From: Eubacteriales bacterium
GTDB taxonomy: Bacteria > Bacillota > Clostridia > Oscillospirales > CAG-272
NCBI GenBank assembly: GCA_050946195.1
Contig: JBMNUI010000001.1
Location: 2,283 to 66,282, forward strand
Direction: 5' to 3'
DNA length: 64,000 nt
Shown: in pieces, positions 14,311 through 34,042 of the stretch
Layout: the number at the start of each line of letters is the position of its first letter
How positions within the stretch are numbered: the first letter of the stretch is position 1
Notes under the pieces: model-generated
The model's database searches: none
Told to the model about the DNA's origin: nothing
The model's input: the letters and a program-made list of their open reading frames with translations, nothing else
Program-made: the position numbers and the translations under genes

Positions 14311-14383
14311 TCGCAGGTTTTGATATTGCTACCCCGCGGCAAATTGAATGGATATATGACCCGCGAAAACTAAAAGCAAGAGG

Positions 14384-14540
14384 TTTGTGAAAGTTTTTTG
14401 AAGATTCTTAAGGAACTTTTTTGAAAAAAGTTCCTTAAGCAGGGGTTCGGGGGCAGAGCCCCCGAAGAAAAAATGGGGGTTTGGGGGCAATGCCCCCGAA
14501 GAAAAAATGAGGGCCCGAGGGCAGAGCCCCCGAAGAAAGG
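14384..14540 (+). repeat. Copy B (archetype) of the repeat family: 33-bp perfect palindrome plus 3 tandem 33-nt hairpin units
   Basis: CTTAAGGAACTTTTTT-G-AAAAAAGTTCCTTAAG (14407-14439), followed by GGGGTTCGGGGGCAGAGCCCCCGAAGAAAAAAT, GGGGGTTTGGGGGCAATGCCCCCGAAGAAAAAAT and GAGGGCCCGAGGGCAGAGCCCCCGAAGAAAGG. The last unit supplies the argH SD. Confidence 0.85.
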
Positions 14541-14551
14541 ATAGAGACATT

Positions 14552-15934: not shown

Positions 15935-16860
15935 AAAAGATTTTTATTGACGGAGAAGCCGGCACGACCGGCCTGAGAATACACAAGCGCCTCTCGGAGA
16001 GAAGCGACATACAGCTGCTTGCAATAAAACCCGAGTTAAGAAAAGACCCTGCCGAGCGGGCAAAACTGCTCAACGAAGCAGATGTTGCATTCCTATGCCT
16101 GCCCGACGCTGCGGCGGTCGAAGCGGTGGCGCTGGTCGAAAATCCCAACACCGTGATAATCGACGCCTCAACCGCACACCGGACCTCCCCCGGCTGGGCA
16201 TACGGCTTTCCCGAACTGTCAGAGCGACACTTCGAGGCTATAAGAAAATCAAAGCGGATTGCGGTGCCGGGCTGCCACGCTGCCGGTTTCATCGCGCTTG
16301 TCTATCCCCTGATTGAGGCTGGCATACTGCCGAAGGACAAGAGGCTGACCTGCTTTTCGCTGACCGGCTACTCGGGCGGCGGCAATAAGATGATAGCCGG
16401 GTACGAAGCCGAGGGCCGCGCGCCCGAACTTGACTTCCCGCAGGTTTATGCCATCGAGCAGTGCCACAAACACCTGAAGGAAATGATGGCGATATCCGGG
16501 CTTGAGAAGGCGCCGCATTTTTCGCCGATTGTAGCCGATTACTACAGCGGCATGCTGGTGACAATCCCGCTTTTTGCCGAAATGCTGAGCGATGCCGATG
16601 TGTCTGACATCATAAAGATATATAAAAAGAAGTATAATGGCGAAATTGTACGGTATTGTGATGCGATTGACAAGGCCGGCTTCGTGTCGAGCGGGGCGCT
16701 TTCGGGATTCGATTATATGAACATATGTGTCATGGGCAACGAGGACAGAATAACACTATGTGCCCAGTTTGACAATCTCGGAAAGGGCGCCTCGGGCTCT
16801 GCGGTCGAGTGCATGAACATCGTGCTCGGACTTGACCCCAAAACCGGGCTTGTACTGTGA
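15931..16860 (+). CDS. argC: N-acetyl-gamma-glutamyl-phosphate reductase (short type-2 form)
   Basis: MKKIFIDGEAGTTGL..., active site VPGCHAAG. ATGA overlap with the argH stop. Confidence 0.9.
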   Translation: MKKIFIDGEAGTTGLRIHKRLSERSDIQLLAIKPELRKDPAERAKLLNEADVAFLCLPDAAAVEAVALVENPNTVIIDASTAHRTSPGWAYGFPELSERHFEAIRKSKRIAVPGCHAAGFIALVYPLIEAGILPKDKRLTCFSLTGYSGGGNKMIAGYEAEGRAPELDFPQVYAIEQCHKHLKEMMAISGLEKAPHFSPIVADYYSGMLVTIPLFAEMLSDADVSDIIKIYKKKYNGEIVRYCDAIDKAGFVSSGALSGFDYMNICVMGNEDRITLCAQFDNLGKGASGSAVECMNIVLGLDPKTGLVL

Positions 16861-16945
16861 ATTTACATCACAAAATGAAAAATGCTTAAAAATCTGACAA
16901 GTCTTTAATAAAAATAATAACGAAATAATCGGAGTATTTGCACAA

Positions 16946-18157
16946 ATGAAGATGATTGACGGCGGCGTCTGCGCCGCCCGGGGTTTTACGGCAAGCGGCA
17001 TTCACTGCGGAATCCGTAAAAACCGCACTAAGCGTGACCTTGCCCTGATATTCAGTGAGAAACTCGCTTCGGCTGCCGCGGTTTACACCACGAATCTGGT
17101 TTGTGGCGCGCCGATAACCGTAACAAAACAGAACATATCCGACGGGTATGCGCAGGCAATAATCTGCAACAGCGGCAACGCCAACACCTGCAACAAAGAC
17201 GGAGTTGAAATAGCCAATGAAACCTGCCGGCTGCTGGCTCGCGAGCTCGGCATATCCGAAAAGGACGTGATTGTGGCCTCTACCGGTGTAATAGGTCAAA
17301 AACTTGACATTACCCCGATAAAAGAGGGCATACCCGCGCTGGTAAAGTCGCTCGGTAAAAACAGCTCGAATGCCGCCGAGGGGATAATGACGACCGACAC
17401 CACAAAAAAGGAGGTCGCGGTCGAGTTTGAGTTAGGCGGGAAAGTCTGCCGGATGGGTGGTATCGCCAAGGGCTCGGGCATGATTCACCCCAATATGGCA
17501 ACAATGTTGGTCTTTATAACCACCGACGTAACGATTTCGCCGGCGATGCTTCAAAAAGCCCTCTCGGAAGATGTCAAAAACACTTTTAATATGATAAGCA
17601 TAGACGGCGACACCTCGACCAACGACATGGTCGCCATACTTGCCAACGGCATGGCGGGCAATCCCGAAATTCTCGACGAAGGCGAAGATTTTGAAACCTT
17701 CAAAAAGGCGCTGGGTGCCGTGACGCTGCCGCTGTGCAGAATGATTGCAGCCGACGGCGAGGGAGCCACAAAGCTGCTTGAATGCCGGGTTACAGGAGCC
17801 GCCGACGAGGAGACCGCCCGGGTTGTGGCCAGAAGCGTTATATCCTCAACGCTTGTCAAGGCTGCGATGTTCGGGGCGGATGCCAACTTCGGGCGCGTGC
17901 TCTGCGCCATAGGCTACAGCGGTGAGCAGGTTGACGTGAATAAAATTGACGTCTCGTTTTCATCTGTTGCAGGGACGGTCAAGGTCTGTGAGGACGGCGC
18001 CGCAGTCGATTTCTCCGAGGAGAAGGCCAAGGCGGTTTTGCTAAAAAAAGAAATAAACATTTTGATTGACCTAAAGAGCGGCGGCGCCGGGGCGGTTGCC
18101 TGGGGCTGCGACCTCACATATGATTATGTCAAAATCAACGGTGCCTACAGGACTTAA
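16946..18157 (+). CDS. argJ: Bifunctional ornithine acetyltransferase / N-acetylglutamate synthase
   Basis: Autoprocessing site PNMATMLVFITTD. 403 aa. Confidence 0.95.
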   Translation: MKMIDGGVCAARGFTASGIHCGIRKNRTKRDLALIFSEKLASAAAVYTTNLVCGAPITVTKQNISDGYAQAIICNSGNANTCNKDGVEIANETCRLLARELGISEKDVIVASTGVIGQKLDITPIKEGIPALVKSLGKNSSNAAEGIMTTDTTKKEVAVEFELGGKVCRMGGIAKGSGMIHPNMATMLVFITTDVTISPAMLQKALSEDVKNTFNMISIDGDTSTNDMVAILANGMAGNPEILDEGEDFETFKKALGAVTLPLCRMIAADGEGATKLLECRVTGAADEETARVVARSVISSTLVKAAMFGADANFGRVLCAIGYSGEQVDVNKIDVSFSSVAGTVKVCEDGAAVDFSEEKAKAVLLKKEINILIDLKSGGAGAVAWGCDLTYDYVKINGAYRT

Positions 18158-18170
18158 AGGAGGCAGGGCA

Positions 18171-19037
18171 ATGACCGACATTGATAACTTCAAGCGCGCA
18201 GAGGTGCTCACACAGGCGCTGCCGTATATCCAGAAGTACTATAACAAGATAATAGTCGTCAAATATGGCGGGAATGCCATGCTCAACGAGGACTTAAAGC
18301 GCCAGGTCATGGACGATATAATCCTGCTCGGGCTGATAGGCGTCAAGGTTGTTGTGGTGCACGGCGGCGGCCCCGAGATTACCGAGGTGCTTGATAAATT
18401 CGGCAAGAAATCTGTATTTATCGACGGCCTACGCGTGACCGACAGGGAATCCGCCGAAATCGTTCAGATGGTGCTGGCCGGCAAGGTCAACAAAAATCTG
18501 GTCAACCTGCTTCAGACCAAGGGCGGCAATGCAATTGGCATCTGCGGCATTGACGGCCGGCTGATTGAAGCCAGACGGCGCGACGAGGTGCACGGCTTTG
18601 TCGGCGAGATTACCCGGGTCAACGTAAAGCCGATTATAGACCTGCTCCAAAACGGCTACATCCCGGTGGTCTCGACGGTGGGCTGCGACAAGGAAGGGAA
18701 TATATACAACATCAACGCCGACACCGCTGCGGCATATATCGCCGGGGCGATGAAAGCCGAGCGCCTCATGACCCTGACTGATATCGCCGGGGTGCTGCGT
18801 GACGTGAACGACCCGTCCTCGCTTATTAAATTTATGAATGTAAACGAAGCAAAGGAAATGATAAAAAGCGGAGCCGTGTCGGGCGGCATGATTCCTAAAA
18901 TCCAGTGCTGCATTGACGCTATCGAGCTTGGAGTCAGCCGGGTCACCATCATCGACGGGCGGGTGCCCCATTCGCTGCTCATCGAGATGCTGACCGACGA
19001 GGGCGCCGGAACCATGATAGCCGCCGATGACGAGTAA
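18171..19037 (+). CDS. argB: Acetylglutamate kinase
   Basis: VVKYGGNAM and VVVHGGGPEI. Start at ATG 18171 after SD AAAGGAGG. Confidence 0.95.
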   Translation: MTDIDNFKRAEVLTQALPYIQKYYNKIIVVKYGGNAMLNEDLKRQVMDDIILLGLIGVKVVVVHGGGPEITEVLDKFGKKSVFIDGLRVTDRESAEIVQMVLAGKVNKNLVNLLQTKGGNAIGICGIDGRLIEARRRDEVHGFVGEITRVNVKPIIDLLQNGYIPVVSTVGCDKEGNIYNINADTAAAYIAGAMKAERLMTLTDIAGVLRDVNDPSSLIKFMNVNEAKEMIKSGAVSGGMIPKIQCCIDAIELGVSRVTIIDGRVPHSLLIEMLTDEGAGTMIAADDE

Positions 19038-19059
19038 GTAAGCGGGGGAAGAGAGCCAT

Positions 19060-20223
19060 ATGGATATAATTGCAAAGGATCATGAGTATATCGCCGCTAC
19101 ATACGACCGCTTTCCGCTCAGAATTGTCCGCGGGAAGGGCGCGCTGGTCTACGACGAGCAGGGAAACGAGTATATCGACCTGGGCAGCGGGATTGCGGTC
19201 AACTCCTTCGGGGTGAGTGACGATGAATGGGTTGAGGCAGTCACAAAACAACTAAAAACCTGCCAGCATACCTCAAATTTATTCTATAGCGACCCGTGCG
19301 TCCTGCTTGCAGAGAAACTCTGTGAAATCTCGGGAATGAAGAAGGTCTTCTTTTCAAACTCGGGGGCCGAAGCTAATGAGTGCGCAATCAAAGCCGCAAG
19401 GAAATATGCGGCGGCAAAATACGGCACTGAAAGATATAATATTATCACGCTGAAAAACAGTTTTCATGGCCGCACGATAACCACTCTGGCCGCCACCGGG
19501 CAGGAGACTTTCCATACTGATTACCGGCCGCTCACCCCCGGATTTATTTATGTCGATGCCGGCGACCTTAATTCAATCGAGGAGCAGGCAAAGACCGGCA
19601 GGGTCGCGGCGGTGATGTTTGAGCTGATTCAGGGCGAGGGCGGAGTTTTGCCTCTTCCGCAGGATTTTGTCAGCGGTATTTCCCAGATTGCCGCCGAATA
19701 CGGGCTTCTCATGATTGTTGACGAGGTGCAGACCGGCTGCGGGCGTACCGGAGAGTATTTTGCCTACATGAATTACGGCATCACCCCGGATATAGTCACC
19801 TTAGCCAAAGGGCTTGGCGGCGGGCTGCCGATAGGTGCGACGCTGCTCGGCGAAAAAGTGAAGGATGTCCTCACCCCCGGCTCGCATGGCTCGACCTTCG
19901 GCGGCAATCCGGTGGTATGCGCCGGGTCGCTGAATATTTTATCGAGAATAAATAAAAACCTACTTGACAAAGTTAAGGAAAAATCGGATTATATTATGAA
20001 GGAGCTTCGCGGCGCTCCGGGGGTTGAGAATATCACCGGTATGGGGTTGATGGTAGGCATTAAAACTGCAAAGCCGACCGCCGAGGTCATCAGAAGATGC
20101 CGCGAGATGGGTGTCATAGTTATCAAGGCCAAAAACAAAGTCAGGCTGCTGCCGCCGCTGAACATCCCTGAGGATTTGTTGAAGAAGGCAGTAGCTGTGA
20201 TAAAAGCGGCCTGTGCAGAATAG
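19060..20223 (+). CDS. argD: Acetylornithine aminotransferase
   Basis: Class-III aminotransferase with [11 protein letters not shown] and PLP-lysine context [10 protein letters not shown]. Confidence 0.9.
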
Positions 20224-20233
20224 GAGGGCGACA

Positions 20234-21223
20234 ATGGTTAATCTTACCGGAAGGAACTTTATCACGCTCCTTGACTTTACCCCCGAGGAGATACTGGGCC
20301 TTCTTGACCTTGCCGCAGAATTTAAGGCAAAGAAAAAGGCCGGCATACCCCACAGACTTTGCGAAGGTAAGAACATCGCCCTGATTTTCGAGAAAACCAG
20401 CACCCGTACCCGCTGCAGCTTTGAGGTAGCCGCCTACGACCTCGGTATGAACGTCACCTACCTTGACCCGCAGGGTTCGCAAATAGGCAAAAAGGAGAGC
20501 ATTGCCGACACGGCGCGCGTGCTCGGCAGGCTTTATGACGGAATCGAGTACCGCGGTTTTGAGCAGTCGATAGTCGAGGAGATAGCAAAATATGCCGGCG
20601 TGCCGGTCTGGAACGGGCTTACCAATGAATTTCACCCGACACAGGTGCTCGCCGACATGCTCACAATAAAAGAGCATTTCGGATATCTTAAGGGACTGAA
20701 TATGGTCTATTTCGGCGACGCACGCTATAACATGGGCAACTCGCTCATGGTGGGCTGCGCAAAACTCGGGCTGAACTTCACGGCCGCCGCCCCCGCCGAA
20801 TATTTCCCCTCAAAAGAGCTGACAGAGAAGTGCAGGGAAATAGCCCGCGCCACCGGAGCTAAGCTGAATTTCATTTCAGACCCCGAGGAAGCTGCGCGCG
20901 GGGCACAGATTGTCTACACCGACGTCTGGCTGTCAATGGGCGAGCCCGAGTCGGCTTGGGGCGAGAGAATAAAGGCGTTGCTCCCATATCAGGTAAACGG
21001 CAAAATCATGAGCCTGGCCGACCCGGAGGCGATTTTCATGCACTGCCTGCCGGCTTATCACGACAGGAAAACTATTATCGGCCGGGAAATCGGCGAGAAA
21101 TACGGGCTTTGCGGACTTGAGGTTACAGACGAGGTCTTTGAGAGTCGACGGTCGGTGGTGTTTGAGCAGGCCGAGAACAGGATGCACACCATAAAAGCCG
21201 TAATGGCGGCGACGCTGATCTGA
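20234..21223 (+). CDS. argF: Ornithine carbamoyltransferase
   Basis: [13 protein letters not shown] and HCLPA motifs. Start at ATG 20234 after SD AGGAGGG. Confidence 0.9.
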
Positions 21224-21352: not shown

Positions 21353-22420
21353 ATGAAAAGAGCTTATTTGGTGCTGGAGGACGGAACGGTTTTCCCGGGC
21401 GAGAAGTTCGGCGCGGATACCGAAAATGTCGGCGAGCTGGTCTTTACCACCAACATTTGCGGCTACATCGAGACACTCACCGACCCGAGCTACTATGGGC
21501 AGATCGTACTGCAGACCTTCCCGCTCATCGGCAATTACGGTATCATCGAGGAAGACTTTGAAGGTTCCTGCTGCGTGCGCGGCTATGTCGTGCGCGAGTG
21601 GTGCGATTTCCCGTCAAACTTCCGCTGCCAGTATGACCTTGACAAGTTCCTCAAAGACCACAATGTTGTCGGGCTGTGCAGTATTGACACCCGGCAGGTG
21701 ACAAGAATCATACGCAAGCATGGGGTCATGAACGCGGCTATCTGCGACAGTGTCCCCGAGGACCTCTATTTTATCAAAAACTACAGAATAAAAGACGCCG
21801 TGCTGAATGTGAGCCGCCGGGAAAAGACGGTCTACCCGGCAGAAAACGAAAAATACAGGGTTGCCCTGATTGACCACGGCGCCAAAAACTACATTATAAA
21901 ATCCCTGCAGCTCCGAGGATGCAGCGTAACCGTGTTTCCTGCAACGACATCGGCCGAGGAGATTCTGGCCTTTTGTCCCGATGGTCTGGTGCTGCCCAAC
22001 GGTCCCGGTGACCCGGCAGAAAACAAGTACCAGATAAAGCAGCTTGAAAAATTACTCGGCAGGCTACCGATATTCGGCATCTGCCTCGGCCACCAGTTGT
22101 TGGCGCTTGCAGCAGGGAGCAGGACGATTAAGCTGAAATACGGCCACCGCGGGGCAAACCAGCCGGTTCGCGACCTTTTTGGTACCCGGACCTATATAAC
22201 AAGCCAAAACCACGGCTATGCCGTCGACAATTCAAGTATAAAATGCGGGGTGCTGATGTTCCAGAACGCCAACGACGGCACCTGCGAAGGGATAGATTAC
22301 CCCGACCTGAAAGCCATCTCGGTCCAGTTTCACCCCGAGGCAAGCGCCGGGCCGCTTGACACCTCGTTTTTGTTCGACCGGTTTACCAGGATGATGGATG
22401 CGGAAGGGGGAAGCAGGTAA
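21353..22420 (+). CDS. carA: Carbamoyl-phosphate synthase small (glutaminase) subunit
   Basis: GATase triad context GICLGHQ...HPE. 355 aa. Confidence 0.95.
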   Translation: MKRAYLVLEDGTVFPGEKFGADTENVGELVFTTNICGYIETLTDPSYYGQIVLQTFPLIGNYGIIEEDFEGSCCVRGYVVREWCDFPSNFRCQYDLDKFLKDHNVVGLCSIDTRQVTRIIRKHGVMNAAICDSVPEDLYFIKNYRIKDAVLNVSRREKTVYPAENEKYRVALIDHGAKNYIIKSLQLRGCSVTVFPATTSAEEILAFCPDGLVLPNGPGDPAENKYQIKQLEKLLGRLPIFGICLGHQLLALAAGSRTIKLKYGHRGANQPVRDLFGTRTYITSQNHGYAVDNSSIKCGVLMFQNANDGTCEGIDYPDLKAISVQFHPEASAGPLDTSFLFDRFTRMMDAEGGSR

Positions 22421-25400
22421 TGCCGCTTGACAAAAGTATTAAAAAGGTGCTGGTTATCGGCTCCGGCCCTATTGTGATAGGACAGGCCGCCGAGTTTGAC
22501 TACGCCGGCGCGCAGGCCTGCCGCGTGCTGAAGGCGGCCGGTATTAATGTGGTATTGATCAACTCGAACCCGGCAACTATAATGACAGACAGCGCGCTGG
22601 CCGAAGAGATATACCTTGAGCCGCTCACCGCCGAAACTGTCGCAAGGATAATAGAGAAGGAGAAGCCCGACAGCCTTCTCGCAGGGCTTGGCGGCCAGAC
22701 CGGCCTGACGCTTGCCATGCAGCTGAATCGTCAGGGAATTCTCAAGAAATTCGGCGTGCGGCTTATCGGCACCAACACCGAAGCAATAGACAAGGCCGAG
22801 GACAGGCAGCTTTTCAAAGAGACCATGCGCTTGGTAGGCGAGCCTGTCGTGCCCTCGGATATTGCGACAGATATTGACACCGCGCTGAAAATTGCCCATG
22901 ATATCGGCTATCCGGTAATCATCCGCCCGGCCTTCACGCTCGGCGGAAGCGGCGGCGGGGTGGCATACAATGAGGAGGAAATGTACTCGGTGGCCACAGC
23001 CGGAATAGAAGCCTCCCCGATAGGCCAGATACTTGTCGAAAAGTATATATACGGCTGGAAGGAAATCGAATTTGAAACCATGCGCGACAGCAAGGGCAAC
23101 ACGATAGCGGTCTGCAGCATGGAAAACGTCGATCCCATCGGCATTCATACCGGCGACAGTATTGTGGTGGCGCCGGCGCTCACCCTGTCCGACAAGGAAT
23201 ACCAGATGCTGCGCTCCTCGGCGCTCAATATCATCGAGGCGCTCGAAATTGTCGGGGGCTGCAACTGTCAGTTCGCACTCAATCCCAACAGTTTTGAATA
23301 TGCGGTGATAGAGGTCAACCCGCGGGTCTCGCGCTCCTCGGCATTGGCCTCAAAGGCTACCGGCTACCCCATCGCCAAAATTGCGACCAAAATAGCGCTT
23401 GGCTACACGCTCGATGAAATAACCAACGAAATTACCGGAAAGACCTGCGCCTGCTTTGAGCCGGCGGTTGACTATGTCGTCGTGAAATTCCCGAAGTGGC
23501 CGTTTGATAAATTTATCGGTGCCTCAAGGAAGCTCGGCACCCAGATGAAGGCGACCGGCGAGGTCATGGCAATTGCCCCGTCGTTTGAGATGGCGCTGAT
23601 GAAGGCAATTCGCGGCGCCGAGCTCTCACTTGACACGCTGAATGTCGAACCGATAAACGACAAGGACATCACAGAACGCTTAATAGTTCCGGATGACAGG
23701 CGGATTTTTACGATATTTGAGGCCATAAAGAGCGGAATGTCGATTGACCGGATTTACGAGCTGACAAAAATCGACCGCTTTTTCATCAAGAAAATCAAAA
23801 ATTTAGTCGACTATGAAGCCGAAATATCAAAAGGGCTGACCGAAGAATTATATCTGAAGGGCAAAAAGCTCGGATACACCGACACCGCGCTAATGCGTAT
23901 TTCGGGCTGCCGAGAGCTGCCATATAAAGCTGACTGCGTCTATAAGATGGTCGATACCTGCGCCGCCGAGTTCGACGCGGTCACCCCGTACTTTTACTCG
24001 ACCTACGACATCGAATGCGAGTCCCGCAAAATGAAGCGGAGCGGCAAGCCGGTGATTCTGGTGCTCGGTTCGGGACCTATCCGCATAGGGCAGGGAATTG
24101 AGTTTGATTACTCGTCGGTTCACTGTGTCTGGACGCTCAAGAAGCTGGGTTATGACGTTGTTATCATTAACAACAACCCCGAGACTGTTTCCACCGACTA
24201 CGACACCGCCGACAGGCTGTATTTCGAGCCTCTGACCCCGGAGGACGTGATGAACGTCATCAAGGTCGAAAAACCTGTCGGCGTTGTGGTGGCTTTCGGC
24301 GGGCAGACGGCAATCAAGCTCACCCGGTATCTCGCCAAATGCAATATTCCCATTCTCGGGACCTCGGCAGAGGGGATTGACATCGCCGAGGACCGCGAGA
24401 AGTTTGACAAACTGCTTGAAAAATTCAATATAAAGCGGCCGCACGGGATGACGGTCACAACGCTGAAAGAGGCGATTGACGCCGCCAAGACCCTCGGCTA
24501 CCCGGTGCTGCTCCGGCCCTCATACGTCATCGGCGGGCAGAACATGAAGATAGTCTACAACGAGGACGAAGTCAAGACCTACATGAACCGCATACTGGCC
24601 GAGGGCATCGACAACCCGGTCCTCATCGACAAGTACATGAGCGGCTCCGAGATTGAGGTCGACGTCATCTCGGACGGCGAGGATGTGCTGATTCCCGGCG
24701 TCATGCAGCACATCGAGCGGGCCGGCGTTCACAGCGGCGACTCTATAGCAGTCTTCCCGCCATACAACATCAACGACAAGATGATGAAGCTGGTGGTCGA
24801 GAGCTCCATCAAACTCGCCAAATCGCTGGGTACCAAAGGGCTTGTGAATATCCAATACCTCATATACAACAACGAACTTTACGTTATCGAGGTCAACCCG
24901 CGCGCCTCGCGGACAGTTCCCTACATCAGTAAAGCCGCAGGCATTCCTATGGTGGATATCGCCGCCCGGGTCATGACAGGAAGCAGGCTGCGCGACCTCG
25001 GCTACGGTACCGGGCTATACAAGGCCCCGCCCTATTACGCGGTCAAGGTGCCGGTCTTCTCCTTTGAAAAGCTTAGCGACGCCGACTCATATCTCGGACC
25101 CGAGATGAAGTCGACAGGTGAGGTGCTGGGAATCGGCAAGAACCTGCAGGAGGCGCTCTTCAAGGGCATGACCTCGGCCGGCATGCTGCTCAAATCGACT
25201 GCAAACCACAGAGAGGTCGGAGTCTTGCTCAGCGTGGCCTCTCAGGACCAGCATGAGGTTGTCTCAATCGCCAAAAAGCTTGACGACCTGCATTTCAGAA
25301 TTTATGCCACGCCCGAGACCGCGGTCACCGTCTCAAAGCTCGGTATCGATGTGCAGATTGTAGTGAGTATTCGGGACCAGCGGGTCTACAAGCTGCTTGA

Positions 25401-26451
25401 GGATGGCAAAATCAACTTTGTGATTTATACCGGGGCGCTGATAGATAACACACTTGACGATTATATTGCATTCCACCGCCGCGCGCTCCAGCTTTCGGTC
25501 CCCTGCGTGACCTCGCTTGACACTGCAAACGCCTTCGCCGACACTATCGCAAGCCGATACAACCAGCAGAACACCGGTCTTGTGAATATAAACAAGATGC
25601 GCACCTTTCGCGAGAAGCTGAGGTTCACCAAAATGCAGGCCACCGGCGATGACTATATATGCATCGAGAACTTCGACGGCAGGATTGAAAGCCCCGAATC
25701 TCTCTGCGTCACCCTCTGCGACCGGCGGCGGGGAATCGGGGGAGACGGTATTGTCCTGATTGAAAAATCGGATATAGCCGACGTCAAGATGCGGGTTTAC
25801 AACCGCGACGGCAGCCGGGGCAAGCTGGCGGGGAACTCAATCCGCAATGTCGGTAAATATGTCTATGACAACGGGTATATCAGGCGCGACACCATCACTG
25901 TCGAGACCGACAGCGGCGTGAAAACCTTAACGCTATATACCTCGGACGGTAAGGTAACTTCCGTGAGCGTCAATATCGGCCATCCCGATTTTTCGACCGC
26001 CGCACTCCCGATGCTGACAGACCTCCCCGAGGCGGTAATGATGCCGCTTGAAGTGGGGGGCAGGGAATACAAGGTCACCTGCCTGTCGGTCGGGAACCCT
26101 CACTGTGTGGTATTCTGCGACCGGATTGACCAGATTGACATCGAAAACGTCGGCCCGCTCTTTGAATACCACAAGGTGTTCCCCGAAAGGGTCAATACCG
26201 AGTTTGTGAGGGTGGTCAACCAAAACACTCTGAAAATGCGGGTCTACGAGCGCGGAAACGGCGAGACTCAGGCTTGCGGTACCGGCGCCTGCGCGGCGGT
26301 GGCCGCCGCCATCAAAAACGGCTTCTGTAAAAAAGGCGAGGATATCACCGTTAAGGTGCTCGGGGGGGATTTGATTGTCAACTGGACCGAGAACGGCATT
26401 ATCCTGACCGGCGACACCGTCAAGGTCTTTGACGGGGAGATTGAAATATAA
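22420..26451 (+). CDS. carB: Carbamoyl-phosphate synthase large subunit fused in frame to a DapF-like (diaminopimelate epimerase fold) domain
   Basis: 1343 aa. Residues 1 to ~1059 are collinear with CarB (duplicated ATP-grasp halves, MGS-like end). Residues 1060-1343 are DapF-like. No stop codon separates the two parts. Confidence 0.9.
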   Translation: MPLDKSIKKVLVIGSGPIVIGQAAEFDYAGAQACRVLKAAGINVVLINSNPATIMTDSALAEEIYLEPLTAETVARIIEKEKPDSLLAGLGGQTGLTLAMQLNRQGILKKFGVRLIGTNTEAIDKAEDRQLFKETMRLVGEPVVPSDIATDIDTALKIAHDIGYPVIIRPAFTLGGSGGGVAYNEEEMYSVATAGIEASPIGQILVEKYIYGWKEIEFETMRDSKGNTIAVCSMENVDPIGIHTGDSIVVAPALTLSDKEYQMLRSSALNIIEALEIVGGCNCQFALNPNSFEYAVIEVNPRVSRSSALASKATGYPIAKIATKIALGYTLDEITNEITGKTCACFEPAVDYVVVKFPKWPFDKFIGASRKLGTQMKATGEVMAIAPSFEMALMKAIRGAELSLDTLNVEPINDKDITERLIVPDDRRIFTIFEAIKSGMSIDRIYELTKIDRFFIKKIKNLVDYEAEISKGLTEELYLKGKKLGYTDTALMRISGCRELPYKADCVYKMVDTCAAEFDAVTPYFYSTYDIECESRKMKRSGKPVILVLGSGPIRIGQGIEFDYSSVHCVWTLKKLGYDVVIINNNPETVSTDYDTADRLYFEPLTPEDVMNVIKVEKPVGVVVAFGGQTAIKLTRYLAKCNIPILGTSAEGIDIAEDREKFDKLLEKFNIKRPHGMTVTTLKEAIDAAKTLGYPVLLRPSYVIGGQNMKIVYNEDEVKTYMNRILAEGIDNPVLIDKYMSGSEIEVDVISDGEDVLIPGVMQHIERAGVHSGDSIAVFPPYNINDKMMKLVVESSIKLAKSLGTKGLVNIQYLIYNNELYVIEVNPRASRTVPYISKAAGIPMVDIAARVMTGSRLRDLGYGTGLYKAPPYYAVKVPVFSFEKLSDADSYLGPEMKSTGEVLGIGKNLQEALFKGMTSAGMLLKSTANHREVGVLLSVASQDQHEVVSIAKKLDDLHFRIYATPETAVTVSKLGIDVQIVVSIRDQRVYKLLEDGKINFVIYTGALIDNTLDDYIAFHRRALQLSVPCVTSLDTANAFADTIASRYNQQNTGLVNINKMRTFREKLRFTKMQATGDDYICIENFDGRIESPESLCVTLCDRRRGIGGDGIVLIEKSDIADVKMRVYNRDGSRGKLAGNSIRNVGKYVYDNGYIRRDTITVETDSGVKTLTLYTSDGKVTSVSVNIGHPDFSTAALPMLTDLPEAVMMPLEVGGREYKVTCLSVGNPHCVVFCDRIDQIDIENVGPLFEYHKVFPERVNTEFVRVVNQNTLKMRVYERGNGETQACGTGACAAVAAAIKNGFCKKGEDITVKVLGGDLIVNWTENGIILTGDTVKVFDGEIEI
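25597..26448 (+). other. DapF-like C-terminal domain of the CarB fusion; first catalytic Cys replaced by Ala
   Basis: FTKMQATGDDY, SVGNPHCVVF, NTEFV and ERGNGETQACGTGACAAV are present. The expected N-x-DGS-x-x-x-x-CGNG-x-RC motif reads NRDGSRGKLAGNSIRN (Ala codon GCG at 25828-25830). The second Cys is retained (TGC 26275-26277). No SD precedes Met1060 (ATG 25597). Confidence 0.8.
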
Positions 26452-26705: not shown

Positions 26706-28250
26706 TTACTTGTTTGTTGAGACTTCAACCCCGGTTATACCAAAGTACTCCATTACTCCCTCAACCGTAATGACCTCAACGCTCTCAAAATATGAAAGCA
26801 AACCGATGGCAGCCAGCTTTCCCTTGGCAATTGAGAGCGAATAGTTGTAACTCTCGGCCGTGCTGACAATTTTGTTGGCAAGAGAGGTGACCCGGCTCTC
26901 ATAGTCAAGCCCTTTGGTTGAGTTCAATTCTTCCTCAAGCGCTCTCTTCATTTCGTCATATGCTCCGGTTTCCTCTGCCGGAATGGTGGTAATGCCGTAT
27001 TCCTTTATCAGATCCGAGCCGATCTGACCCACCGCCTCTATTACCGGGGCCATGTCATCGTTATTGCCGATGACTATCAGCGAGTTTGCCATAAGCTCTA
27101 TCGATTCGTCTGAAGTTGCTTCAACATCATTCCCGGTCAGGCTAAGAATGTTCTCCATCACCGAAGCTGTTCCCTCGTTTTTGCCGACCAGGGTATTCAG
27201 GATACCTCCGACATTTTCGGAGGTCGCGTTTTTAAACGACTGCATCACCGCACCTACGATTTTGCTCGCCGGACCGGAGTCCTTATCAGGCAGCTTCATT
27301 CCTAAAAACGCCTCATCGTTTTCCCAGGAATCGGCCGCCGCATTGAGCAGCTGCGAGGAGATTTCGGGAAGCAGCACCGACTGTTCCATGTAGGGCAGCA
27401 GGGCAGAAAGCGCGTTGACGGCCGCCAGCTCGGTTGATATTCCGGACCCGATGTTTTCGTTGTAGACCTTCAGAGCTTCGCCGGCAGCGTTGAGAATTAC
27501 GGACACCTCGTCGGTCAGGCTTGTGTCATATCCTTTAATGGTGGTGAGCGCTTCGGTCAGCAGGTCGGCGAAAAATCCGGCAAATGAAAAGCCGCTTGCC
27601 GAGAGCTTTTTATGTACTGCTGTGATATCGGCCCTCCCGCGCGAGATCGAATCTTTTGAATAATATACACCGGCAGTGTCGGTTTGCCGGATTTCGTAAC
27701 CCGGCATGCCGAGCGCCTCAAGCGCTTCGGGGTCAACCGAGCGCAGGATAACCACCGCACAGGAGATCGGAGCGAGCAGGACCGCGGCAATGAGCAATCC
27801 CTGAACCGCGCCAAGGCCGGCGCCTATCCAGCGGCTGGCCGGATTCATCGGATCGCCGTCTTTCTTCACCAGCCGGGTCAGCTTCTCGGAGATGACCTTA
27901 AGCTTTATCAGCGAGAGGAGCTGAAACACCGCAAAGATGAGCGCGAAAAATACCGGGGCGAGCATTGCTGCGATTATTTCGCCTAAAAGTTGTTCGGTCT
28001 GGGGCGACTTGAGCAGCAATTGCTTTATCGGCTCAGTGTAAAATCGGGCGGCAACACTTAAACCGAATTCGGAAAGGGAGCCTGAAATCCACTTGGCAAG
28101 GAAAAATGATAATACCGCGAGTAACGAAAGGTAAATCAGCCTTACAACCGAACGGCCGGTACCGCAGCGGTAGCCGAGCCAGATGCAGATGGCCAGAATC
28201 ACCACCTGAAAGGCCAGAAATGTCACAGACAATAGTGTAACCAGATTCAT
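26706..28250 (-). CDS. Membrane protein with a CvpA-like 4-TM N-terminal region and a ~350-aa helical C-terminal extension; function unknown
   Basis: Hydrophobic N-terminal ~200 aa (MNLVTLLSVTFLAFQVVILAICIW...). Start placed at ATG 28250 with SD AGGAGG. The C-terminal part has no motif I recognise. Confidence 0.45.
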   Translation of the reverse strand: MNLVTLLSVTFLAFQVVILAICIWLGYRCGTGRSVVRLIYLSLLAVLSFFLAKWISGSLSEFGLSVAARFYTEPIKQLLLKSPQTEQLLGEIIAAMLAPVFFALIFAVFQLLSLIKLKVISEKLTRLVKKDGDPMNPASRWIGAGLGAVQGLLIAAVLLAPISCAVVILRSVDPEALEALGMPGYEIRQTDTAGVYYSKDSISRGRADITAVHKKLSASGFSFAGFFADLLTEALTTIKGYDTSLTDEVSVILNAAGEALKVYNENIGSGISTELAAVNALSALLPYMEQSVLLPEISSQLLNAAADSWENDEAFLGMKLPDKDSGPASKIVGAVMQSFKNATSENVGGILNTLVGKNEGTASVMENILSLTGNDVEATSDESIELMANSLIVIGNNDDMAPVIEAVGQIGSDLIKEYGITTIPAEETGAYDEMKRALEEELNSTKGLDYESRVTSLANKIVSTAESYNYSLSIAKGKLAAIGLLSYFESVEVITVEGVMEYFGITGVEVSTNK

Positions 28251-28459
28251 AAGCCCGCCTCCTGTGTGTTTTGTCAGCTCTATTCTATTACATTCGGCAT
28301 TAATTGTCAAGAAAAAGATAAATTTTATAAAAATGGCGCGCCGTGGTCGTAGTGAAACCACAGGTCGCCAGCCTCACACCAATAATTACTTTGTTTATTC
28401 GCTCCGATAATAAGTAAACTATTATTGATAATATAACCACTCACGGCAAGGTGAATAAA

Positions 28460-29251
28460 ATGAACAACAAATTGATGTCTATTCTCATTATCGCATGCTG
28501 CGCCATGATGATTCTGACCATCTGCACCGACGCTGCAGGAGAAACTTTAAACTGGTACTGCAAGCGGAACAAAAACCACCTGCAGCCCCGCTGCGACCCT
28601 GACATGCAGTTCATAGAAAAATATGACGGCTACTATGTCGATAAGAATCACGGCGACACAGCTTCGAATCGCGTGGTCTATCTCACCTTTGACGCAGGAT
28701 ACGACAACGGAAATGTCGGCAAGGTGCTTGATGTTCTGAAAGAAAAAGAGGTCCGGGCGGCATTTTTTATTCTCGCCCACCTTGTAAAAAAGAACACCGA
28801 CCTTGTGCGGCGGATGGCCGACGAGGGACATCTTGTATGCAATCACACGGCAAGCCACAAGGATATGACAAAATTCCAAAGTCTTGAGGAATTCGGTGCT
28901 GAACTGAAGAAGCTCGAAGACATTTACACCGAATATACCGGTCGCGAAATTGCACGTTATTACCGGCCGCCGGAAGGGAAGTTCAACGAGGAAAACCTGA
29001 AATTTGCCCAGCAGATCGGTTACAAGACTATATTCTGGAGCCTGGCCTACGCCGACTGGGACAACGAAAGACAACCCGACCCCGAGGAGGCCTATAACCT
29101 TATAATGAGCAATATCCACAACGGCGCAATAATCCTTCTGCATCCCATCTCAAGCACCAACGCTAAAATTCTCGGACGGCTTATAGACCAGCTCAGGGGT
29201 GAGGGTTACAGCTTCGGCACTCTTGACCAACTGACCAACGGGGAAAAATGA
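28460..29251 (+). CDS. pdaA: Delta-lactam-biosynthetic de-N-acetylase-like polysaccharide deacetylase (PdaA-like)
   Basis: NWYCKRNKNH...VYLTFDAGYDNGN...VLDVLKEKEVRAAFF...GHLVCNHTASH is collinear with B. subtilis PdaA as I recall it. The ORF track starts at GTG 28451; ATG 28460 has SD AAGGTG. Confidence 0.7.
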   Translation: MNNKLMSILIIACCAMMILTICTDAAGETLNWYCKRNKNHLQPRCDPDMQFIEKYDGYYVDKNHGDTASNRVVYLTFDAGYDNGNVGKVLDVLKEKEVRAAFFILAHLVKKNTDLVRRMADEGHLVCNHTASHKDMTKFQSLEEFGAELKKLEDIYTEYTGREIARYYRPPEGKFNEENLKFAQQIGYKTIFWSLAYADWDNERQPDPEEAYNLIMSNIHNGAIILLHPISSTNAKILGRLIDQLRGEGYSFGTLDQLTNGEK

Positions 29252-29931
29252 AACGGCTTGTCTGTCTTGTTACTGCAGCCCTGCTTGTGGTCCTGGCTGT
29301 GCTGTCGGCCTCGGCGCAGGATTCTTCAATCGTGGTTTTCAAGAAAAAAATTGAGAATCCGAAGATAATCGCCCTGACCTTTGACGACGGACCGCACCCG
29401 CGCCACACAATGGAGATTCTCGATATCCTGCGCAAATATGATGTGAGAGCGACCTTTTTTGTTGTCGGGGAAAAAGCCGGGTACTATCCCGACGTGCTCA
29501 GGCGGATAGTGAAAGAAGGACACGAAATCGGCAACCATACATTCAGCCACAAATGCTTTAAAAACCTGACTGCCTCCCAGATGAAAAGCGAAATCGAACG
29601 CTGCGACAACTTGCTAAATGAAATATGCGGATATAAAACAAAGCTGTTCCGCCCGCCCGAGGGAGTGCTGCCGGGCTCGATATACCGATATATCAAGGAT
29701 GAAAACTATACCGTAATCCTCTGGAACATCGACACGCGCGACTGGGCAGGCACACCAGCCGAAGCTATGTTAAAAAATATCAAGGAGAATGTTTCATCCG
29801 GGGATATTATTCTCATGCATGACTATACGCGCAGGGGCCATACGGTTGAAGCGCTTAAGATGATAATACCTTATCTTATTGATGAGGGGTACAAATTTGT
29901 GACAATTAGTGAGCTTTTAGGGTATGATTAG
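29248..29931 (+). CDS. NodB-homology polysaccharide deacetylase with N-terminal signal/anchor
   Basis: ALTFDDGPHP, GHEIGNHTFSH, LFRPPEG and ILMHD motifs. ATGA overlap with pdaA. Confidence 0.8.
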   Translation: MKRLVCLVTAALLVVLAVLSASAQDSSIVVFKKKIENPKIIALTFDDGPHPRHTMEILDILRKYDVRATFFVVGEKAGYYPDVLRRIVKEGHEIGNHTFSHKCFKNLTASQMKSEIERCDNLLNEICGYKTKLFRPPEGVLPGSIYRYIKDENYTVILWNIDTRDWAGTPAEAMLKNIKENVSSGDIILMHDYTRRGHTVEALKMIIPYLIDEGYKFVTISELLGYD

Positions 29932-30192: not shown

Positions 30193-31155
30193 TTACTCCG
30201 CCGGCTCGTCGGCAGACGGCTCGGTGTCCTCGGGCGGCGGCTCGATCATATATTTTTCGATAACCGGGTAAGCGGCGTATGTCGCGATATAGCCCGAGAC
30301 CGCCATGAAGTAGAAGAAGGGAAGTATCAGCGGAAAGATAATGTTAAAGGGCGCTAAGATGTAGAACAACAAGTAATTCAGGGCCAGCACGGTCACAATT
30401 CCGAGGGCCGCCATAGTATTGCGCTTAATGCCGAGCACCGTGAAAATCAGGGAGTTTTTGATTATCTTCCAGGTTTTCAGGTCAAATGTGATAAGCTGCA
30501 GATACACATAATAACGCATTGTAAAATATACTAAAATCAGGGCAATCACGGCCACGTAGAAGATGTTCATCAGGTAGGAGCCGCTGTTCTGGGAATAGAA
30601 CATGAGATTCCAGAAAAGCAGGAAAATCACCGAAATGTCAATAAGTCCGACAAAAAAGCCCTGCCGGAAATTCTTTTTTATGGCATAAAAGTAGTCCGAA
30701 ACTATAAAAACAGGGTCGCCCCGCACCAGCCCGCGCAGAAGGTAAGTTCCGCCCACATTTTGCCACCCAAAGGTCAGCACGTAGACTAAGGCTATTGCTC
30801 CGATGACGTAATAGACATAGGAATTGTAAACCGGAACGCCAAGCTGTTGGCTGACCGTGGCGAGCAAGAGGTCGTTTGCCGGCGACGGCGACATGAAGGC
30901 AGCACCGTAAGCGGTGGGATAGAGCACATCTATTGCCGTACTTCGGGTCGGCCCGGTCAAAAAGACAAAGACCGCCGCGATAATCGGCAGTATTTGAAAC
31001 ACCATGAGCAGGTTCACCGAGATCAGCTTGCCGAATTTCCTTTTAAAATACTTAAAGAAATTTCGGAAATTCTTTGGCCCGTCTTCGCCTTTCTCGACGC
31101 CCTTGCCGTCCCGGTTCATGTCAAAGAGTTTGAACTTCCTTTTTTTTGCTTCCAA
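30193..31155 (-). CDS. Multi-pass membrane protein, DUF624/YesL-like
   Basis: Polar N-terminus followed by about 6 TM segments. The pattern F-x-x-F-K-x-N-F-x-Q and N-L-L-x-x-x-x-x-L-P is reminiscent of YesL-family proteins. TTG start 9 nt after AGGA. AT-rich relative to the window. Confidence 0.45.
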   Translation of the reverse strand: MEAKKRKFKLFDMNRDGKGVEKGEDGPKNFRNFFKYFKRKFGKLISVNLLMVFQILPIIAAVFVFLTGPTRSTAIDVLYPTAYGAAFMSPSPANDLLLATVSQQLGVPVYNSYVYYVIGAIALVYVLTFGWQNVGGTYLLRGLVRGDPVFIVSDYFYAIKKNFRQGFFVGLIDISVIFLLFWNLMFYSQNSGSYLMNIFYVAVIALILVYFTMRYYVYLQLITFDLKTWKIIKNSLIFTVLGIKRNTMAALGIVTVLALNYLLFYILAPFNIIFPLILPFFYFMAVSGYIATYAAYPVIEKYMIEPPPEDTEPSADEPAE

Positions 31156-31168
31156 GTCAGGTAATCCT

Positions 31169-31810
31169 TTACAAAATCATGTTGAGCAGAAATCTGTATC
31201 CGAAATCGGCCAGTATTACATAGCCGAACAAAATCAAAAAAATCAGGTTGTATTTCCAGAAATACCAGGATTTCAGCAGGGAATAGATGTTTCTGTAATA
31301 CCTCCAGCGGTTTGAATACAACTCGGAGACAACCCCGCTCGAGATAATAACCGAGCACAAAACAAGCATACGCAAAAGAAACAGGATTGTCACAAGGATC
31401 CTTCCGCCCCCGGCTTGCTGCGCGTGCAACAGGTCAATGCACATTGAGGATGACAGGCCGTAGAACACGCCCGAAAACAGCAGAATAGTGCGGTCGATAA
31501 GCCCCGTTATGTATGTAAATCCTGCTATTAATATTATAAACGATATTTTAAAGATGTCAACCGAATTATAAACAATATCGTAGATAAGCCCGGTTGAGAG
31601 CGAGCCGGCAGGTGGAGGGAGGAACATCGTGCTGATTCGGGCTGTCATCACCTCCGGCAGGCTGTCAAGGAGAAAAAGATTGAGAAGCGCGCCGAGGCAG
31701 GCGGCAAAAGCAAAAAGGATTGTATAAATCACCGCCAGCCTTGTCCGGGCATATCCGGGACGGTTGAGCTGCCTGAGCCTCTCAATATCAATTCCGCCGG
31801 CCGTCTCCAT
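31169..31810 (-). CDS. Integral membrane protein (~5 TM), weak SpoIIM/DUF95-like pattern; function unknown
   Basis: Co-oriented with the gene above, 13 nt upstream of it. The YNSVDIFKISFIILIAGFTYITGLIDRTILLFSGVFYG spacing resembles the F-x-N...G...G...N-G-x-x-x-G core of SpoIIM-type proteins. This is pattern-level only. Confidence 0.35.
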   Translation of the reverse strand: METAGGIDIERLRQLNRPGYARTRLAVIYTILFAFAACLGALLNLFLLDSLPEVMTARISTMFLPPPAGSLSTGLIYDIVYNSVDIFKISFIILIAGFTYITGLIDRTILLFSGVFYGLSSSMCIDLLHAQQAGGGRILVTILFLLRMLVLCSVIISSGVVSELYSNRWRYYRNIYSLLKSWYFWKYNLIFLILFGYVILADFGYRFLLNMIL

Positions 31811-33355: not shown

Positions 33356-34042
33356 TTACTTCATCGTTGCGTACTCGATTTTCTCAATCAAGAGTTTTCC
33401 GGTCTTGTTGGAAAGTGTGATATACTGCTTTCTTGATGCGTCACTGCCGATGTCGGTTCTGAAGGTTCCGTTGTTGTATCTTATCATGTATTCGAGCGTG
33501 AAGAGGTAGCCGTCGCCGGTTTCTGACATTTTTGTTATCATGATATTGTAGAGTTTCTGCATTGTGAAGGCTTCTTTTTTCTCATTTCCTTCTACCTCGA
33601 AATAAGCCTCCTCAAAACAGGCATTGTAAGACTCGGCATCCCCCGCAATGATATAGTTGACAAAATCCACCATGAAGCGCACGCCTTCGTCATAATTATC
33701 GTAGGTCTCGGGCTCGATTGCAACCGTCACACCGGTATCGAGTTCACGGTAGTATATGCTCCGGTCAAGCCCCATGTAATACTCGTCTTTGTATATGTCC
33801 TCGCTGTAGTCGGGCTTGTGGAATATTATAGTCTGCTTGGTTGGGTTATACACATCATTGTCGCGTTCTTCCAGCTTTTTGGCAATGAGATTTATCAGGG
33901 GCGCGGCCGAGTAATATAAAATGACAAAAAGCAGGATTGCCGCAAAACAGCAGAGAATTATCCTCTTTAATTTTCTGGTCTCTTCCCTTCCCCCGCGCCG
34001 CTGGATTTCGGGCGGGATTATCGGCTTATCGTTGTTATGCAT
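33356..34042 (-). CDS. Membrane-anchored protein of unknown function (single N-terminal TM)
   Basis: Basic N-terminus, then the TM segment IILCCFAAILLFVILYY, then a ~170-aa soluble domain rich in Tyr/Glu/Asp. No motif recognised. Confidence 0.5.
   Translation of the reverse strand: MHNNDKPIIPPEIQRRGGREETRKLKRIILCCFAAILLFVILYYSAAPLINLIAKKLEERDNDVYNPTKQTIIFHKPDYSEDIYKDEYYMGLDRSIYYRELDTGVTVAIEPETYDNYDEGVRFMVDFVNYIIAGDAESYNACFEEAYFEVEGNEKKEAFTMQKLYNIMITKMSETGDGYLFTLEYMIRYNNGTFRTDIGSDASRKQYITLSNKTGKLLIEKIEYATMK

Follow-up and report, generated by a model that had tools for sequence, protein, structure and literature searches.

The window analysed here, a stretch of 64,000 nucleotides from contig JBMNUI010000001.1 of a member of the Oscillospirales (assembly GCA_050946195.1), carries a gene in which carB, encoding the large subunit of carbamoyl-phosphate synthase (CPS), continues without a stop codon into a complete domain of the diaminopimelate (DAP) epimerase family, DapF. 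This domain has alanine in place of the first catalytic cysteine (Cys73 in H. influenzae numbering), and it has kept the second (Cys217) together with the residues that line the DAP pocket. An intact DAP pocket on a CarB-welded domain under selection favours a DAP-binding, epimerase-dead module, and the best explanation of the fused gene, denoted carB::dapF* in the following, is tentatively that this module would regulate or stabilise the CPS of the arginine pathway. The initial annotation of this DNA had held that the domain is no ordinary two-thiol epimerase; the data fit this view, the clade in question having lost the link to the DAP/lysine-pathway gene dapL that two-Cys fusions retain.

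The fused gene and its junction

The open reading frame (ORF) listing of the window gives a single frame of 1343 amino acids (aa), whose translation is free of stops from the C-terminus of CarB into the DapF-like part by way of SLDTANAFADTIASRYNQQNTGLVNINKMRTFREKLRFTKMQATGDDY. Residues 1-1046 are recognized as CarB by the NCBIfam models NF003671 (1443 bits, cutoff 599) and TIGR01369 (1419 bits, cutoff 1027), and residues 1068-1341 as DapF by TIGR00652 (269-274 bits, cutoff 114.65). Pfam assigns CPSase_L_D1 and CPSase_L_D2 (twice each), CPSase_L_D3, MGS and, again twice, DAP_epimerase. Besides the curated models, the duplicated ATP-grasp halves, the oligomerisation and MGS domains and the adjoining carA mark the N-terminal part as a regular CarB. 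The read-through of carB described in the initial annotation is thus borne out at the level of the reading frame and of both sets of domain models, which it had proposed to consult. The parts of the gene are the following.

22420 to 26451, plus strand: carB::dapF* ORF, 1343 codons and stop (ORF list, Pfam, NCBIfam)
22420 to 25557, plus strand: CarB portion, residues 1-1046, two ATP-grasp halves with oligomerisation and allosteric domains (NF003671, TIGR01369, Pfam)
25255 to 25512, plus strand: MGS-like allosteric domain, residues 946-1031 (Pfam PF02142)
25558 to 25620, plus strand: junction, residues 1047-1067, CarB tail into DapF strand 1 (translation, alignment; predicted local confidence, pLDDT, 59-64 in the AlphaFold2 model)
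25621 to 26448, plus strand: DapF-like domain, residues 1068-1343 (TIGR00652, phmmer against the PDB, Foldseek, dN/dS)
25648 to 25650, plus strand: GAT, Asp at the DapF Asn11 position (codon read)
25693 to 25704, plus strand: PESL motif, common to CarB-fused DapF domains and absent in most standalone DapFs
25828 to 25830, plus strand: GCG, Ala where canonical DapF has its first catalytic Cys (Cys73 in H. influenzae; codon read, alignment)
26275 to 26277, plus strand: TGC, second catalytic Cys (Cys217), kept (codon read, alignment)

The end region of the CarB part aligns to residues 799-1051 of E. coli CarB, and alignments to this protein and to the DapF model place the start of the DapF part at about residue 1067, immediately past the end of CarB, such that the junction appears essentially linker-free. 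Met1060 (ATG 25597) had been noted as lacking a Shine-Dalgarno sequence and taken for the start of the DapF domain. The former holds, as a Shine-Dalgarno-like motif before this codon is absent in 59 of 59 full-length orthologues with an unbroken frame, but the latter does not, since Met1060 is a C-terminal residue of CarB, replaced by Leu in 11 of the 59. A conserved ribosome-binding site was found ahead of neither internal Met in the same orthologues, and a free DapF-like protein made from an internal start was rejected on these grounds; the domain is therefore produced solely as a CarB-attached part. A scan for promoters and terminators near the junction gave nothing informative.

An error of sequencing or assembly that deleted a stop codon or made the substitution had been raised as a possible source of the fusion, and is extremely improbable. 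Public gene calls do split the gene frequently, for example into "proteins" of 284 and 449 aa, but these standalone versions are gene-calling artefacts arising from a run of N (L001:5921-5930), from an in-frame TAG in place of a conserved Lys codon in one metagenome-assembled genome (MAG; L002:5941-5943), and from internal Met codons at contig ends. Against an artefact, the same 1343-aa protein, 100% identical, is found on an independent Joint Genome Institute metagenome contig, all related loci with sufficient upstream DNA show one unbroken frame of 1340-1364 codons (including the 59 full-length orthologues), and the change from Cys to Ala takes two base changes. In one long-read contig (L173:5057-10254) the fused gene is broken by many frameshifts. 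Because assemblies break the gene in these ways (N run, TAG, frameshifts), databases show short pieces, and the public annotation of the fused proteins reads either "CarB" or "DapF, partial".

Two further candidates were set aside. The locus L090:826-2228 holds an ANTAR gene followed by a 277-aa standalone DapF of the Ala type (P0072). Up to residue 43 this protein resembles a canonical DapF, and from there on it matches the fused Ala-type domain of P0030 at about 99% identity; the contig has a coverage of 1.9x, and the gene, an assembly chimera or a recombinant, appears to join a canonical dapF 5' end to the P0030 domain. In L085, a truncated argF lies directly against the DapF domain, which looks like a mis-join.

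Within the CarB part, the equivalents of E. coli CarB S948, T974, T977, T1016 and T1042 are conserved and those of K954, K993, N1015 and T1017 are not. The latter read Gln, Ser, Tyr and Gly in the window (25231-25434, CarB residues 938-1005), of which Tyr and Gly are the same throughout the fused clade, the K954 and K993 positions being variable. We take K954, K993, N1015, T1017, S948, T974, T977 and T1016 to be the effector contacts for inosine and uridine monophosphate (IMP, UMP) in the E. coli enzyme, and a UMP/IMP site of this type may be altered in the fused CarB. Compared with E. coli CarB (PDB 1jdb, 1bxr), the window protein has all CarB domains, an adjoining carA, the MGS-like domain and the equivalent of the ornithine-site Thr1042 in common, but it differs in the four residues K954, K993, N1015 and T1017 and in its extra C-terminal domain of 277 residues.

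Catalytic site, DAP pocket and predicted fold

The closest solved DapF is that of B. anthracis (PDB 2otn; E 9e-71, phmmer). Its first catalytic motif, GKSCGNGLRC, corresponds to GKLAGNSIRN in the window, and the second, ACGTGACA, is intact there. Codon reading and DapF alignment agree with the initial annotation on Ala for the first and Cys for the second thiol. They agree, too, with its view that no other cysteine steps in: in the clade of 204 sequences to which the window domain belongs, the Cys73 position is occupied by Ala in 172 and by Gly in 32 members, never by Cys, Ser or Thr, and among the 194 aligned domains of this clade the corresponding numbers are 165 and 29, with neither Cys nor Ser. 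A compensating cysteine in the ...IRC motif was rejected, this residue being Asn in the window and Cys, Ser or Asn among relatives. The reported change of the N-terminal GND to GDD is present in the window; as a general trait it does not stand, Asp being found at this position in only 62% of the Ala/Gly clade (Asn11 is present in 100% of the sampled canonical DapFs).

According to a structural paper of 2025 (PMC12039745), the proximal carboxylate of DAP is contacted by G74, N75, G218 and T219, the distal amine by N64 and E208, the distal carboxylate by R209, N64, N157 and N190, and the proximal alpha-amine by Asn11 and Cys73. In the 194 clade domains N64, N157, N190, E208, R209, C217 and G218 are 100% invariant, H159 is invariant to at least 99%, G74 and N75 are kept to 98-99%, and position 219 is always T or S. 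Hence the residues for the distal L-centre and the proximal carboxylate of DAP are all, or nearly all, retained. Of the positions invariant in canonical enzymes, only C73 (100%), N11 (to D, 62%) and D43 (to Y or F, 41%) are altered in the clade; D43 adjoins Gln44, and its loss occurs almost exclusively in domains that have D11 (Fisher p 5e-10, phylogeny ignored).

The ligand and catalytic positions are enriched among the strictly conserved ones, 7 of 10 being at least 99% invariant compared with 39 of 284 overall (hypergeometric p 5e-5). The dN/dS of the DapF-like domain amounts to 0.04-0.14, equal to that of the CarB part, with dS saturated in the more distant pairs, and its mean pairwise identity of 64% matches that of the CarB allosteric domain (63.5%; CarB overall, 77%). 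On these sequence-derived selection data, decay of the DapF-like domain is excluded. A catalytic residue is gone and the ligand site is kept under purifying selection, as would be expected of a pseudoenzyme or a ligand-sensing regulatory domain.

In comparison with canonical DapF (EC 5.1.1.7; PDB 2otn, 1bwz, 9mro), the window domain shows a full-length, above-cutoff match, the two-lobe fold, the second Cys and the DAP contacts N64, N75, N157, N190, E208, R209, G74, G218 and T219; it differs in the Ala for the first Cys, in Asp for Asn11, in its attachment to CarB and in not lying by dapL. The pair of cysteines expected of a DapF is missing in 204 of 204 clade members, with Cys217 present, and two-thiol epimerisation is not possible for the window domain as its sequence is written. 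Since neither the pair of cysteines nor the pathway context (see below) is found, an annotation as functional EC 5.1.1.7 is not justified.

The two-lobe fold is seen in a predicted structure, an AlphaFold2 model of the last 448 residues (mean pLDDT 84; predicted template-modelling score, pTM, 0.64). A Foldseek search with this model returned DapF structures at E 1e-32, the best match being the ligand-bound, closed DapF 9mro with a target-normalised TM score of 0.91. In view of the low confidence at the junction and the pTM of 0.64, no geometry between the domains can be claimed. PhzF and 3-hydroxyproline dehydratases also appeared in the fold search, at 11-17% identity, and the window protein has no Pro_racemase or PhzF match in Pfam at E <= 0.01.

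Distribution, phylogeny and operon context

A genome scan with one genome per GTDB species yielded 133 confirmed candidate stretches, of which the best 80 were examined. All 80 loci stem from uncultured Clostridia MAGs of gut, rumen and digesters; their labels are Oscillospiraceae, Acutalibacteraceae, Ruminococcaceae and the like, and the closest ones show 97% and 92% identity. The architecture is neither rare nor confined to this genome, and in this respect the initial annotation has to be revised: CarB-DapF fusions occur in up to 133 species-representative genomes and in hundreds of metagenome proteins, and the two-Cys version exists in cultured Ruminococcus. The survey of relatives that it had suggested turned up the same fusion with Ala or Gly across the 204-member clade. 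Its remark that it knew of no described fusion agrees with the literature searched, in which no paper on a CarB-DapF fusion or a natural one-Cys DapF was found.

Fusions that keep Cys73 were met in a search of representatives at 50% identity, for example P0125 (1349 aa, from an Oscillospiraceae MAG). A protein search around P0125 gave 119 relatives, among them the cultured Ruminococcus bicirculans and R. difficilis; nearly all are MGS+DapF fragments, and many of the other sequences in these comparisons are fragments too. In 83 of the 119 the domain is fully canonical, and 36 are without Cys73 (18 Gly, 10 Ser, 5 Ala, 2 Phe, 1 Asn), eight of which have lost Cys217 as well, with the pocket residues mostly kept. 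The two-Cys CarB::DapF proteins of the Oscillospirales (such as that of Ruminococcus bicirculans and MGI6497870.1 from an Oscillospiraceae MAG), for which no characterisation was found in the literature searched, share architecture, junction and PESL motif with the window protein and form its sister group. They differ in keeping both Cys and Asn11 and in their usual operons, ANTAR-carA-carB::dapF-pyrG-dapL or carB::dapF-dapL, and are presumably genuinely bifunctional.

Several other variants were observed along the way. The 1351-aa fusion P0287 / P0136 (Logan/ENA, 214-kb contig) keeps both Cys and has an altered distal DAP site, GMGDCH (N157 to Asp) and YESGCGET (R209 to Ser); it may be a two-base racemase acting on a different substrate. 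Both catalytic Cys are replaced (Ser/Ser or Ser/Ala) in P0320, P0355, P0349, P0325, P0342 and others, a few with a degenerate pocket, and these domains look like fully dead DapF retained on CarB. P0344 and P0366, fused CarB::DapF fragments with N64D and C73G, are labelled "MAG: ... [Treponema sp.]", a label that would reflect either mis-binning or horizontal transfer beyond the Clostridia. In P0174 (776 aa) a canonical two-Cys DapF carries a C-terminal Mur ligase (Mur_ligase_M and Mur_ligase_C). MurE uses meso-DAP, and this fusion therefore fits the pathway logic.

A neighbour-joining tree of 514 domains, calculated with the catalytic column omitted and without support values, places the window inside the all-non-Cys clade of 204 sequences, with two-Cys fusions as its sister. 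Fitch parsimony requires 13 changes between Cys and non-Cys with Cys at the root, and all non-Cys sequences but one are fused domains. Cys73 was accordingly lost at least 13 times independently in fused domains, sometimes together with Cys217 and with the pocket residues kept, while about 170 sampled standalone DapFs keep Cys73 in all cases but P0194, in which Cys73 and Cys217 are both Ser. From the repeated loss of Cys with the pocket kept, it follows that catalysis is often dispensable once the domain is fused and the pocket is not. The fusion predates the loss of Cys73.

The immediate neighbourhood of the fused gene in the window is as follows.

13081 to 21223, plus strand: argG, argH, argC, argJ, argB, argD and argF, the upstream arginine operon (Pfam)
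21353 to 22420, plus strand: carA, small (glutaminase) subunit of CPS, its last base overlapping the carB start (Pfam CPSase_sm_chain and GATase)

The order argJ-argB-argD-argF-carA is kept 5' of the fusion in relatives, and carA lies directly 5' in 55 related loci. The metagenome loci discussed here are those among the matches listed, so that counts derived from them are lower bounds. On this basis, argF is found 5' of the fusion in 61 Ala/Gly loci and never 5' of two-Cys fusions; of the 11 two-Cys loci that extend far enough downstream, 9 have dapL at a distance of 0.15-2.1 kb, whereas among the 63 Ala/Gly loci that reach 2.5 kb or more on that side, L100 alone has dapL or pyrG downstream. 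Within 8 kb of the fusion, no dapL was found, either in the window or at any of the 80 loci from the genome scan. In R. bicirculans, dapL (TIGR03542, 507 bits) follows carB::dapF after 130 nt, and dapL is usually the next gene after a standalone dapF, the two being linked in 27 of 40 cases. The genomic association with the DAP/lysine pathway expected of a DapF is thus missing from the window.

The arrangement ANTAR response regulator-carA-carB::dapF-pyrG-dapL recurs in at least six metagenome loci, in some cases with asnB after it or with glnA or amtB-glnK ahead of it; the carA-carB::dapF pair of other two-Cys lineages lies in further settings. L093:1-11916 and L098:1-9861 (also L095, L096, L097 and L099) present the two-Cys fusion in an apparent nitrogen-assimilation operon rich in glutamine amidotransferases, with the order (glnA or amtB-glnK), ANTAR, carA, carB::dapF, pyrG, dapL, (asnB), which suggests ANTAR-controlled co-expression of CPS, cytidine triphosphate synthase and the DapL route. 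The sediment metagenome locus L100:2860-12417 holds an Ala-type fusion (GVMAGNALRN, Asn11 kept) in the operon carA-carB::dapF*-pyrG-(PP-loop ATPase)-glmS-dapL. As the only Cys-less fusion seen near dapL, it could represent an intermediate stage or else speak against the general pattern.

The rest of the window is an otherwise ordinary chromosome of sporulating Clostridia in which no DAP-pathway gene was found. A second dapF was found neither in its 64 kb nor within 8 kb of any related locus, a weak tblastn match at 61388-61158 being rejected as a GGDEF protein, and no partner gene is conserved 3' of the fusion among related loci. Minus-strand ORFs at 26706-28361, 30193-31810, 33356-34042 and 45169-45999 have no Pfam match at E 1e-5 (lengths 551, 320, 213, 228 and 276 aa); the 551-aa ORF is convergent and directly 3' of carB::dapF*, and two polysaccharide deacetylase genes follow (28451-29931).

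Possible roles of the DapF-like domain

The simplest history has a real dapF standing beside carB in a carA-carB-dapF-(pyrG)-dapL operon of the Oscillospirales and becoming fused end-to-start to CarB, with two-Cys fusions remaining beside dapL. One lineage then took the fused gene into an arginine operon without dapL, where Cys73 changed to Ala or Gly at the base of the lineage, never to be regained. Asn11 and Asp43, on the same active-site face, were remodelled afterwards, and Cys217 and the residues gripping both ends of DAP stayed invariant under strong purifying selection. On this history the domain would bind LL- or meso-DAP, or a very close analogue, without turnover. The open-to-closed movement of the DapF lobes could be relayed through the near linker-less junction to the allosteric domain of CarB, or, alternatively, dimerisation of the DapF-like domain could stabilise CPS. 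The output of CPS for arginine would in this way follow the supply of DAP, lysine and cell-wall precursors. Real epimerisation of DAP would fall to other genes of the same genome, either a canonical dapF or the Ddh route. The more specific proposal that the Cys-less DapF is a DAP sensor in CPS, lobe closure tuning the arginine-pathway enzyme to the pool of cell-wall and lysine precursors, is possible but rather doubtful. A precedent for a catalysis-independent, regulatory role of the DapF body is the activation of RppH in E. coli, where DapF C73A/C217A still binds and activates its partner (PMC4227774; PDB 6d13). In both cases a DapF body would act by protein contact, and the Cys-less mutant of the E. 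coli protein retains this role, but the E. coli protein is a free, active, moonlighting enzyme, whereas the window domain is fused and naturally Cys-deficient, with CPS as its putative partner.

It is very unlikely that the domain still serves as the DAP epimerase of the cell, with the place of the thiol taken by water, perhaps activated by Asp11, in the space vacated when Cys became Ala or Gly. In favour of this reading, the pocket is conserved in full along with Cys217, the N11D change is confined to the Cys-less clade, no second dapF was found in the 64-kb window or within 8 kb of any locus, and L100, with no other dapF within 6 kb, has its Ala-type fusion in a dapL operon. On the other hand, Asn11 is kept in 38% of the clade, and an ordinary epimerase is unlikely because the two-thiol mechanism needs both Cys (C73A/C217A is described as epimerase-inactive in PMC4227774, which cites earlier work for this), because the dapL linkage seen in two-Cys fusions and with standalone dapF is gone, and because in other fused lineages position 73 is taken by Phe, Asn or Ser, or both thiols are gone. 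A new single-base enzyme, in which Cys217 alone would take the alpha-proton from, or return it to, a single face of a substrate resembling DAP, is also unlikely, though somewhat less so. Its outcome could be beta-elimination from an analogue with a leaving group (lanthionine, 3-hydroxy-DAP), stereospecific protonation or proton exchange. Such chemistry would account for the invariance or near-invariance of Cys217, H159, E208 and the oxyanion-like helix N-termini (G74, N75, G218, T219), for the occupation of position 73 by Ala or Gly and never Ser, and for the coupled changes of N11 and D43, which resemble remodelling more than decay; single-Cys DapF mutants are said, from work by Koo et al. 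in 2000, to eliminate HF from 3-fluoro-DAP. The fold family does include one-base enzymes, PhzF and the 3-hydroxyproline dehydratases of the fold search among them. But DAP itself offers no leaving group at the beta position, downstream conservation of a partner gene for a new pathway is not seen, the arginine-operon setting points to no substrate, and other fused lineages are without Cys217 as well, so that thiol chemistry is no general need. The analogy to proline-racemase-type dehydratases drawn in the initial annotation stands as a resemblance and not as more than that. With trans-3-hydroxy-L-proline dehydratase, PhzF and PrpF the window domain shares the fold superfamily, in which losing or replacing one acid/base residue goes with a change of reaction; however, identities are 11-17%, the pockets of those enzymes are remodelled, and the window domain, which keeps the DAP pocket, is not a member. 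As fused domains repeatedly lose Cys and keep the pocket, the balance leans towards a non-catalytic, ligand-binding role rather than a new activity.

A purely structural relic, on which the folding, solubility or oligomerisation of CarB (by DapF-type dimerisation) would depend, with no role for a ligand, is likewise an unlikely reading. The fusion is seamless and linker-free, catalytic residues are repeatedly lost, and the PESL motif, specific to fused domains, could by inference only be a surface of contact with CarB. Tyr 268 of E. coli DapF is presumably a dimer-interface residue. The matching C-terminal aromatic is kept as F or Y in the fused domains, and the structure of Y268A DapF has been solved (PDB 4ik0). 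What speaks against a ligand-free role is that 7 of the 10 ligand and catalytic positions are at least 99% invariant, as residues facing the solvent in an apo cleft would be expected to drift.

The DAP-binding, epimerase-dead module meets difficulties of its own. The presence of another dapF or ddh in these genomes is an assumption, the absolute invariance of Cys217 exceeds the apparent need of a pure sensor, and the physiological logic of a DAP-CPS connection is conjecture. The predicted structure gives no defined interface with the allosteric domain of CarB at its low-confidence junction, L100 has its Ala-type fusion still in an operon with dapL, and the trees are neighbour-joining trees without support values built in part on fragments.

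The DapF scaffold is known to diversify, as seen for the O-ureidoserine racemase DcsC, the histidine racemase HisR/CntK, PddB and Chlamydia DapF. These proteins keep two Cys and change the residues for the substrate, whereas the window domain does the opposite. In the fused family, nature has put a textbook two-base enzyme to the test: hundreds of lineages drop one thiol and keep the other together with the whole pocket, and this is seen only in domains welded to CPS. For annotation this entails a risk, as metabolic reconstructions may credit an organism with a DAP epimerase that is absent, or miss a bifunctional enzyme in Ruminococcus. If the domain is a one-base catalyst, it would represent a new activity on the DapF scaffold. 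If DAP sensing holds true, it would constitute a new class of effector site in CPS and link the supply of cell-wall and lysine precursors to arginine synthesis, and it would be widespread in the uncultured, abundant Oscillospirales of gut and rumen.

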